Assembly: GCF_053078305.1 (NCBI RefSeq)
Contig: NZ_CP166879.1
DNA: 64,000 bases
Direction: 5' to 3' (one strand)
Below are positions 59,342 to 61,118 of this stretch, piece after piece (positions within the stretch are counted from its first letter, which is position 1; each line of letters starts with the position of its first letter). Position numbers and translations under genes: made by a program. The notes under the pieces were generated by a model, which had not been told where the DNA came from, did not search any database, and saw only the letters and a program-made list of their open reading frames with translations.

Positions 59342-59875
59342 TTATCTGTCGATTTCCCAGCACGCCAGCGCGCTCTCCTGGTCTCTCCGGGATACCTGAC
59401 CGTAACAGTTATTTGAGCGAATACGGCAGTCTCTGCCACCGTCCTTAATCCACCAGCGAATCGCCTCACACGCTCCCCTGCGATCGCCTGCATTAATTCG
59501 TTTATAAAACGTCGACGGGAAACACTTACCTGGGCCAATGTTGTAAGGACAGAATGACGCGATCCCCGCTTTCTGGGGTTCAGTCAGTGGCACTTTGATG
59601 TTTTTCGCCACCCATGCCAGCGCCTTATCACGTTCAATGGCGTTAACCTGGTCGCATTTTTCCTTCGACAGCTTCATGCCAGGGACGACAGGCTTACCAT
59701 CCACCCGGGTGGCACCACGGCAGATGGTCCAGATACCCGCACCATCACGGTATGCCGTGCTGTGGTTACCTTCTTTTTCGTCAAGAAACTGGTCGAGGAT
59801 TTCAGGCGCAGGCGCACCTGCGGCAATCAGCGCCAGAACAGCAGCTGACAGGCCGTATTTGATTTTTGCGTTCAT
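59342..59875 (-). CDS. R: SAR-type endolysin (T4-lysozyme-like muramidase)
   Basis: 177 aa; weakly hydrophobic Gly/Ala-rich N-terminus KYGLSAAVLALIAAGAPAP; catalytic E-x8-D-x5-T in EGNHSTAYRDGAGIWT. Confidence 0.88.
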   Translation of the reverse strand: MNAKIKYGLSAAVLALIAAGAPAPEILDQFLDEKEGNHSTAYRDGAGIWTICRGATRVDGKPVVPGMKLSKEKCDQVNAIERDKALAWVAKNIKVPLTEPQKAGIASFCPYNIGPGKCFPSTFYKRINAGDRRGACEAIRWWIKDGGRDCRIRSNNCYGQVSRRDQESALACWEIDR

Positions 59876-59911
59876 GTATATATTAAATATTCAGCCGCTG
59901 TCCCTGGCCCA

Positions 59912-60898
59912 CTAAATACGCACTTTAAGATAAGTCAGCCCCGGCTGGATCCAGCCATCAGGCTCTTTCTTAAAGGGTGGCGTATTGAAATCACAAAGAA
60001 GAGCCTCCCGCACCGCAGCATCCCTGTCTGCACCACTGGCAAGTGCTTCAATCTCTGCCGCCAGCTGCAGATATCCCATGCAGCGACCAATGCGCTTCAT
60101 CAGCCCCTGTTTTTTATTGTTCTTCAGGTAATCAATGGCAAATTCAATGAGCGTCTCACTGTGCTGGTGCGATGGCGGTGTTACTTTTCCATTTTCTGAT
60201 ATGGTGATTTTCCCGTCATCACCGGATACAACAAAGGATGGCCGGTTACACTCCCGTTCCTGGTTTTTGTCCGACACAGGCACAGTAAAATCACTTTCAT
60301 GCCCGTTTTTACGACAGTCCTCGCCACGTACCGCAGCAAATACCGACAAGGCATACTCCTTTGCTCTCGCTTCATAGTCGCTGAATGTTGTTTTCGGATC
60401 GTAGTCTTCCCTGTACATAACCGACAGAACTTCCTCATGATCAATATGAACACTGACCACGCTGCCTATTCTTTTGGTCAGCACAAGACGAGAATCTTCC
60501 CCGACTTTCACTCCTGGTGTCACACGTGCCGGAAGCTCCACATTAACCATCGCGCTCTGCACATCATCAGGCGCATTTTTTACCGGTTCGTTGACCTTTT
60601 CACGCCCCGGGTAAGTGGCGATTTTTTCCGGCATTGTCCATGAAGAAATATTCTGAAAGCCACATCGCGCAGTCCCTTCGCGTAATCCGAGAGCCGCATC
60701 CATGAAAAACTGCTTCGCCTGTTTTTTCGCCTCAGCTTCGTAAAATTCCAGCGTGGCACCTTCAGTACGGTCAAGACTAATCGCCACATATGGCGACAAC
60801 AACGACGGCTGACCGGCAATTTCCAGTGCCACCGTAACAGTTATCTTATCCGGGTAATGATTTATCCCTTTTACAACCAGTTCATATTTGTTATTCAT
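59912..60898 (-). CDS. hypothetical 328-aa protein inserted between holin and endolysin
   Basis: ORF MNNKYELVVKGINHYPDKITVTVALEIAGQ... starts 4 nt after S stop with GGGGAGAG SD; no TM or signal peptide; no family recognised. Confidence 0.7.
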   Translation of the reverse strand: MNNKYELVVKGINHYPDKITVTVALEIAGQPSLLSPYVAISLDRTEGATLEFYEAEAKKQAKQFFMDAALGLREGTARCGFQNISSWTMPEKIATYPGREKVNEPVKNAPDDVQSAMVNVELPARVTPGVKVGEDSRLVLTKRIGSVVSVHIDHEEVLSVMYREDYDPKTTFSDYEARAKEYALSVFAAVRGEDCRKNGHESDFTVPVSDKNQERECNRPSFVVSGDDGKITISENGKVTPPSHQHSETLIEFAIDYLKNNKKQGLMKRIGRCMGYLQLAAEIEALASGADRDAAVREALLCDFNTPPFKKEPDGWIQPGLTYLKVRI

Positions 60899-60902
60899 CG
60901 CT

Positions 60903-61118
60903 TTACTCTCCCCGGGCCGCCTTACGCCGGTCTTCTCTGATTTTAAAATACAGGTTCGTCAGGTATGTCAGCAGACCAAACAGCAGACTCCCCAGCACGC
61001 CTATTGCCGCCCACTGAGACGGGGAAACCCTGTCCAGCAACTGCAGGAACCAGTAGCCCGTTCCCACCGCTGACGTGGTGTATGACACACCTGTTGTGAT
61101 TTTTTCCATCTGGTACAT
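60903..61118 (-). CDS. S: pinholin S (phage-21 S-like) with dual-start motif
   Basis: 71 aa [71 protein letters not shown]; Met1 and Met4 starts; two TM segments. Confidence 0.88.

Follow-up and report, generated by a model that had tools for sequence, protein, structure and literature searches.

A 64,000-nucleotide (nt) stretch of contig NZ_CP166879.1 (assembly GCF_053078305.1; the whole stretch is called the window here) carries part of a phage lysis cassette at positions 59342-61118. An original prediction had described a holin gene (S) and an endolysin gene (R) in this interval as a lysis system of the phage-21 type, that is, a pinholin paired with an endolysin of the signal-anchor-release (SAR) kind, and not of the lambda S105/R type. 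The interval proved to hold three minus-strand open reading frames (ORFs) of a late operon rather than two: S, a 328-amino-acid (aa) gene of the DUF1327/YdfR family, and R (Table 1). Two small ORFs and a methyltransferase gene follow R, and the spanin genes Rz and Rz1 lie beyond them. Elsewhere the prophage resembles lambda, with a Nu1/gpA terminase, a portal of the lambda family, capsid E, tape measure, J and a tail fibre, and it adjoins hyaAB sequence that is 99.9% identical to that of Escherichia coli. We read the locus as a lysis cassette of the phage-21 type that is intact and belongs to the 933W/Qin lineage, situated in the late operon of a lambda-like E. coli prophage beside the hya operon, and give this reading, which is based on sequence comparison, a probability of about 0.9. 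Family matches, motifs and the lack of similarity to lambda S and R all support the predicted type of system.

Table 1. Features of the lysis cassette and its surroundings, with positions in the 64,000-nt window
Feature	Position	Strand	Basis
S, class II (phage-21 type) holin/pinholin, 71 aa	60903-61118	-	ORF, PF04971, PHROG holin families
DUF1327/YdfR-family gene between S and R, 328 aa	59912-60898	-	Pfam, PHROG
R, GH24 muramidase with N-terminal SAR-type domain (residues 1-24), 177 aa	59342-59875	-	PF00959
S translation-initiation region	61125-61142	-	Shine-Dalgarno sequence and predicted hairpin
Terminator-like hairpin with T-run, between the DUF826 gene and S	61156-61185	-	Stem conservation
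15-bp hairpin with A-run and T-run flanks, directly downstream of R	59219-59251	-	Sequence
Small ORF, 60 aa (MEKYK start)	59003-59185	-	ORF call, PHROG phrog_1115
Small ORF, 43 aa (MSDKL start)	58857-58988	-	ORF call, PHROG phrog_4906
Orphan N6/N4 DNA methyltransferase gene	57914-58849	-	PF01555, PADLOC
Rz, inner-membrane spanin subunit with N-terminal transmembrane domain, 155 aa	57450-57917	-	PF03245, phrog_13
Rz1, outer-membrane lipoprotein spanin subunit, 61 aa	57512-57697	-	PF06085, phrog_3198
DUF826 gene, upstream of S	61195-61440		
DUF1378 gene, upstream of S	61481-61660	-	
nanS-p-like ORF, upstream of S, 655 aa	61799-63766		

S matches the Pfam family PF04971, "Bacteriophage P21 holin S," with an E value of 9e-33 and a score of 112.5 bits (the family cut-off is 26) over profile positions 1-63 of 64, and it is assigned to holin families in PHROGs. 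Many Stx2a phages, and Shigella phage POCJ13 as well, have an identical S. The protein shares 70/71 residues with S of phage 933W, and is 80% and 79% identical to the prophage homologues EssD (DLP12) and EssQ (Qin), respectively. The phage 21 holin, S21, was itself absent from the collections searched, and EssD was used as its proxy. Against the S21 sequence, identity was 76% overall and 20/23 in the second transmembrane domain (TMD2); fragments of that sequence agree with a published source (bioRxiv 10.1101/2021.04.20.440580). The close likeness to the phage 21 pinholin claimed at the outset was therefore confirmed, at 76 to 80% identity. From this similarity, S would be expected to form heptameric holes of nanometre scale that do not release a cytoplasmic endolysin.

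The alternative for S would be a canonical large-hole holin with no more than a resemblance to S21, and lysis by the lambda route. The one point in its favor is that hole size cannot be read from a sequence. S does not group with the canonical large-hole holins, an outcome that the original prediction had named as contrary to it: it belongs to PF04971 and gave no BLASTP alignment with lambda S107, its likeness to S21 and EssD includes 22 of the 23 residues of TMD2 in EssD, and its partner enzyme R has an export signal of its own. We give a large-hole holin next to no likelihood.

To judge the two transmembrane segments that had been proposed for S, hydropathy was compared with that of EssD. 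TMD2 (residues 36-58) is clear: its mean Kyte-Doolittle (KD) value is 1.48, and its best 17-residue window reaches 1.99. TMD1 (residues 7-28) carries no charge, but its hydrophobicity is weak (KD of 0.71 with 50% Gly/Ala/Ser/Thr, compared with 0.70 and 55% in EssD); hydropathy alone would not call it, and it was recognized only by its uncharged character and by homology. With 71 aa, two hydrophobic segments and a basic C-terminal tail (net charge of +3), S has the class II layout. In the published model, TMD1 of S21 exits the membrane before the pinhole assembles (10.1101/2021.04.20.440580; PMC9636201), and the weak TMD1 of S, with its EssD-like profile, fits that model.

R matches PF00959 at an E value of 4.6e-25, and the E values of the S and R family matches rule out chance. 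The T4-lysozyme-type E-x8-D-x5-T motif was found where it had been predicted, as E35-x8-D44-x5-T50, with the same residue numbers as in RrrD (of DLP12) and R21. In an alignment of 37 sequences of the R clade, E35 and D44 never vary, and T50 shows at least 90% conservation. By sequence, R matches the solved structures of R21 (3hde, E value of 4e-16, and 3hdf) and of RrrD (4zpu). It is 93% identical to R of 933W, 88% identical to K-12 RrrQ and 34% identical to RrrD/R21, while BLASTP gave no alignment with lambda R.

The AlphaFold2 (AF2) model of R has a predicted local distance difference test (pLDDT) score of 83, and its residues 11-30 are packed on the catalytic body at a pLDDT of 91 to 96. 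This model resembles full-length R21 (3hde; template modeling [TM] score of 0.70 to 0.72 over 168 to 173 columns) better than SAR-less R21 (3hdf; TM score of 0.53), and its top Foldseek matches are GH24 muramidases, including R21, RrrD and P1 Lyz. A SAR segment free of Cys separates the steric regulation of R21-type enzymes from the disulfide isomerization of the P1 Lyz type. R has Cys at positions 52, 74, 109, 118, 136, 150, 157 and 172 and, like R21, none in the SAR segment. The eight residues are conserved throughout the 933W/RrrQ endolysin clade, compared with four in R21/RrrD, and an inserted loop (residues 148-158) has one of the eight on each side. The pattern suggests up to four periplasmic disulfides and would fit a periplasmic enzyme of the R21 type rather than the P1 Lyz type.

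The Gly/Ala-rich SAR N terminus that had been proposed for R was compared with published features of such domains, in which an uncharged, weakly hydrophobic TMD rich in Gly/Ala/Ser/Thr follows one to three basic residues (PMC9239132). R begins with MNAKIK, followed by YGLSAAVLALIAAGAPAP. K4 and K6 thus precede 18 uncharged residues (7-24) with a KD of 1.48 to 1.66 and 56 to 59% Gly/Ala/Ser/Thr, so that the layout agrees with the proposal; the absence of any such domain on hydropathy, named beforehand as a result that would speak against it, was not observed (KD of 1.48). Among 63 distinct enterobacterial homologue N termini, 62 keep one to three basic residues and the core LSAAxLxLxxAGAxA, and the single exception has no hydrophobic stretch. 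L9, S10, A11, A12, L16, G20, A21 and A23 are at least 90% conserved, and in the 37 aligned homologues conservation is higher in the hydrophobic core than in the basic tail before it. Lambda R has no hydrophobic N terminus.

The spanin genes complete the cassette. Rz matches PF03245 at 5.9e-48 and the Rz-like spanin family of PHROGs. Rz1 (PF06085, 5.2e-20) is embedded in Rz in another reading frame; its lipobox is VSAC, with the Cys at position 20, and its mature part is rich in Pro. By these matches, Rz/Rz1 is a two-component embedded spanin pair.

Comparison with named systems places the cassette among its relatives. It shares with lambda (S105/S107, R, Rz/Rz1) its position in the late operon and the embedded Rz/Rz1 families (PF03245, PF06085). 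Lambda S, however, contains three hydrophobic segments, lambda R is without a hydrophobic domain at its N terminus, and neither is similar to its counterpart here; the lambda combination of a class I holin with three TMDs and an endolysin without an export signal is not what this locus encodes. With phage 21 and DLP12 (EssD, RrrD), the cassette shares the Pfam families, the length of S, Met1 and Met4, an almost identical TMD2 and the basic tail of S, and with R21/RrrD it shares the triad at 35/44/50, the Cys-free SAR segment and the predicted fold of full-length R21. The differences are the start of S (MYQM here, MKSM in phage 21), the four additional Cys residues and extra Cys-flanked loop of R, and the SAR sequences, which are unrelated (LSAAVLALIAAGAPAP in R, AVAAAIGGGAIAIASVLI in R21). 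Alignment to S21 and R21, the check that had been suggested for the prediction, thus gave high identity for S and low identity with conserved triad positions for R.

The closer relatives differ mainly in what is inserted. In phage 933W (NC_000924, the Stx2 phage of E. coli O157:H7 EDL933), nanS-p, a DUF826-type gene and a terminator-like hairpin lie upstream of S as they do here, but S and R are neighbours only 4 nt apart, and R is separated from Rz by an ant gene. Here, the DUF1327 gene parts S from R, and two small membrane ORFs and the methyltransferase gene stand between R and Rz. The K-12 Qin cassette (essQ-ydfR-rrrQ-rzpQ/rzoQ) has the same order of holin, DUF1327 gene and lysozyme. It differs in its MKSM start, in a spanin of another type (DUF2514), in the absence of an insert between R and Rz, and in the size of YdfR, which has 103 aa, whereas the protein encoded here has gained mosaic C-terminal modules.

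In the mechanism we propose, Q-antiterminated late transcription would run leftwards through nanS-p, DUF1378, DUF826 and the terminator-like hairpin into S. S would enter the inner membrane as two helices; the weakly hydrophobic TMD1 would then leave the bilayer and TMD2 would oligomerize into nanometre-scale pinholes, collapsing the proton-motive force. R, exported by Sec, would be kept inactive on the periplasmic face by its uncleaved SAR domain until depolarization frees that domain, which would refold onto the lysozyme body as in R21, and murein would be degraded. Rz/Rz1 would then disrupt the outer membrane. In this scheme, the pinhole size, the dependence of release on the proton-motive force, the lack of signal peptide cleavage and the control of timing are modeled on characterized homologues.

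Several observations weigh against this reading; they concern the N terminus of R, the junction of S and R, the survival of such cassettes in cryptic prophages and the start of S. R is only 34% identical to R21, with which its N-terminal 31 residues do not align. Its N terminus also resembles an ordinary Sec signal peptide with n-, h- and c-regions, and most members of the R clade, including 933W R, have an AGA↓S site usable by signal peptidase. R could accordingly be made with a cleavable leader and act as a soluble, processed periplasmic lysozyme, with S acting only as a depolarizing or killing protein. The layout is the classic one (MNAKIK, YGLSAAVLALIAAG, APAPE), and the canonical AxA site occurs in RrrQ as well as in 933W R. 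There is also a precedent: the presumed SAR domain of T4 RI proved to be a cleaved signal peptide (PMC8385771), which shows that sequence alone cannot decide between a SAR domain and a signal peptide.

Other data argue against cleavage. Both AxA sites in R are followed by Pro (AGA↓P and APA↓P), and since proline after AxA blocks signal peptidase I (PMC8385771), cleavage at these two sites should be blocked, although sites such as AAG↓A may still be used. The N terminus of R differs from that of 933W R at residues 2, 3, 5, 6 and 22 and has two basic residues instead of three; the change from Ser22 to Pro is the one that removes the AGA↓S site. The hydrophobic segment is conserved and is modeled as packed on the catalytic domain with a pLDDT above 90, which would not be expected of a discarded leader. 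In addition, 933W R, which appears among listed SAR endolysins with Kuty's 2011 thesis as the source (PMC9239132), acted as a tethered SAR endolysin in vivo: alone it rounded few cells to spheres, and it rounded more when the Mu releasin was coexpressed (Chamblee et al. 2022; PMC9239132). Finally, an unregulated secreted lysozyme would lyse cells ahead of holin firing. We consider a cleaved leader very unlikely. By analogy with 933W R and from the AF2 model, R would instead be tethered uncleaved, released upon loss of the proton-motive force and activated on release.

The junction of S with the gene behind it (60896-60910) and the one in front of R (59875-59914) bear on how R is expressed. The last codons of S (GGAGAG TAA) serve as the Shine-Dalgarno sequence of the gene that starts 4 nt past the S stop. 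That gene is R in 933W; here, as in Stx2_95 and Qin, it is the DUF1327 gene. Because the DUF1327 gene is interposed, R has lost this Shine-Dalgarno sequence and lies, without an evident one of its own, behind a 36-nt AT-rich spacer. The ratio of R to S expression may therefore differ from that in 933W.

Close relatives of the cassette persist in cryptic prophages, Qin among them, so that it need not be functional in this prophage. The cassette might be a relic, its intact genes unused as in cryptic Qin and DLP12, or with R poorly expressed through inserted genes that disrupt coupling. The near-identical cassettes in those two prophages, the loss of the R Shine-Dalgarno sequence and the terminator-like hairpins that flank genes are in keeping with this possibility, as is the finding that 4942 of 5426 complete E. 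coli genomes have some match to a 4.3-kb cassette query, many of whose prophages are necessarily defective. However, none of the five lysis ORFs is truncated, their catalytic and lipobox residues are conserved, neighbouring genes overlap or lie close together, and the adjacent morphogenesis module, from Nu1 to the tail fibre, is apparently complete. The interrupted layout also occurs in Stx2_95 and the PhiR12 series, complete phage genomes listed with E. coli K-12 MG1655 and E. coli C as hosts. These results make a relic highly improbable and favor an intact cassette.

The start of S was described in the original prediction as an MYQM dual-start motif. Met codons 1 and 4 are both present, giving products of 71 aa and 68 aa (the latter starting at 61109), and a Shine-Dalgarno sequence, GGGAGA, precedes them at 61130-61125. 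Among 120 cluster representatives of the S family, the M-x-x-M frame is nearly universal, while residues 2 and 3 vary: MYQM (28) and MKSM (17) occur along with MYRM, MDQM, MNQM, MMKM and others. A basic residue is present in MKSM, MYRM and MMKM but not in MYQM, MDQM or MNQM. The antiholin character of S21-71, the 71-aa form of S21, has been ascribed to its additional positive charge (PMC9636201). In S, the extra residues are Tyr-Gln, so the 71-aa form gains no positive charge, and the S21-71 antiholin mechanism cannot simply be assumed or transferred unchanged. Of the proposed dual start, the two conserved Met codons are confirmed, but S lacks the basic residue to which S21-71 owes its antiholin character.

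RNA structures around the S start were examined as other features of this region. A small hairpin, CUUCCG-GAUUG-CGGGAG (61142-61126), is predicted to hold the Shine-Dalgarno sequence in its 3′ arm, and a longer predicted helix (61150-61144 with 61099-61093) encloses both S AUGs. In 933W, Stx2_95 and PhiR12_1 the stem of the hairpin is kept while its loop varies, and most family members show a sequestering hairpin in single-sequence folds. The single hairpins are not significant against shuffles (z of -0.3 to -2.4), and RNAalifold gave no consensus structure for the S translation-initiation regions of nine family members. We treat the predicted Shine-Dalgarno hairpin as a lead, not as a finding. 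The hairpin between the DUF826 gene and S is better conserved: 90% of the cells of its 13-bp stem are paired across five distinct relatives, compared with 25 to 66% in slid controls; three pairs show compensatory double changes; and its position is kept in 933W, Stx2_95, PhiR12_1, PhiR12_3 and ZF40. It is probably an insulator that solely Q-modified polymerase reads through.

From these observations, the 71-aa product of the 933W/MYQM lineage might not be a charge-based antiholin, with lysis timing perhaps set by mRNA structures at the S start or by accessory genes of the cassette; we regard this proposal as unlikely. The elements that may be involved are the Shine-Dalgarno hairpin, the helix enclosing the AUGs, the upstream terminator, the DUF1327 protein and the two small membrane proteins encoded between R and Rz. 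How the very common MYQM lineage, without the antiholin charge, regulates its lysis timing has a bearing on when related phages release Shiga toxin.

The gene inserted between S and R encodes a protein that matches PHROG phrog_1085 over its full length and Pfam DUF1327 over residues 1-74 only, where it is 43% identical to K-12 YdfR. Beyond residue 74, it is a mosaic of PHROG modules without assigned function. A 96% homologue exists in E. coli; the homologues are restricted to E. coli and range from 183 to 333 aa. The AF2 model (39-sequence alignment) has a mean pLDDT of 49 and is confident for residues 1-70 only. YdfR is reported to bind RNase E's catalytic domain via its first 72 residues and possibly also to bind RNA (PMC13232886).

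Downstream of R, the hairpin at 59219-59251 is very stable, resembles a bidirectional terminator and sits before the inserted small ORFs and the methyltransferase gene. The 60-aa ORF has a C-terminal hydrophobic segment and a GGGAG Shine-Dalgarno sequence before its ATG at 59185; no Pfam, NCBIfam or PADLOC match was found for it. The 43-aa ORF consists of a single hydrophobic segment, and its counterparts are annotated as hypothetical in relatives. PhiR12_1 and E. coli prophages have both of these single-TMD ORFs at the same place, between R and Rz. From their place inside the cassette, a role in lysis control or exclusion is conceivable.

The methyltransferase gene matches PF01555 at 1.3e-32 and only generic PADLOC models (type II, orphan methyltransferase). 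Its stop codon overlaps the start of Rz (ATGA), it is present in the seven closest E. coli genomes, and no restriction partner lies nearby. For the DUF1327 protein, both small ORFs, DUF826 and DUF1378, PADLOC gave no match to a defense system, and neither S, Rz and Rz1 nor the inserted ORFs had a model in NCBIfam.

A pinholin plus SAR endolysin cassette is already known and ordinary in such a prophage. For 99% of Stx phages, a pinholin was reported along with a predicted SAR endolysin whose N-terminal domain is R21-like (Pinto et al. 2021; PMC8136144), and 933W-type S proteins were classed as P21-family pinholins in a 2023 study (PMC10462455); the rating of this locus as a known lysis strategy was correct. 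The cassette shows the prophage to be on the standard lysis route of Stx phages and phage 21 and provides a reference frame for the inserted genes. For annotation, S can be named a pinholin and R a SAR endolysin, and Rz1 should be added. The points worth keeping are the dual start without Lys, the question of R cleavage and the takeover of the S 3′-end Shine-Dalgarno sequence by the DUF1327 gene. The exact window sequence was absent from the complete E. coli genome set, where the best match had 87% coverage at 97% identity; seven complete genomes carry more than 80% of the region, the methyltransferase gene included, at 96 to 97% identity.

Upstream of S, the homologue of the 655-aa ORF is annotated in relatives as a SASA-family esterase or 9-O-acetyl-N-acetylneuraminic acid deacetylase, the gene known in Stx phages as NanS-p. 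Just upstream of it, at 64000, the window comes to its end. The counterpart of this prophage in NZ_CM143724.1, the closest complete genome, carries Q, a methyltransferase gene and three tRNAs, then TerB and DUF3927 genes, with no stx before nanS-p. The DUF1378 gene just upstream of S, also found in related Stx-type prophages, encodes a protein of 59 aa that has a hydrophobic N-terminal segment followed by a basic tail, a layout that loosely recalls small membrane-tethered lysis regulators. Within 30526-37012, the tail-fibre end of the prophage (35294-37012, with a DUF4376 gene at 34581-35252) lies about 1 kb from host hyaA/hyaB and marks the approximate boundary between prophage and chromosome.

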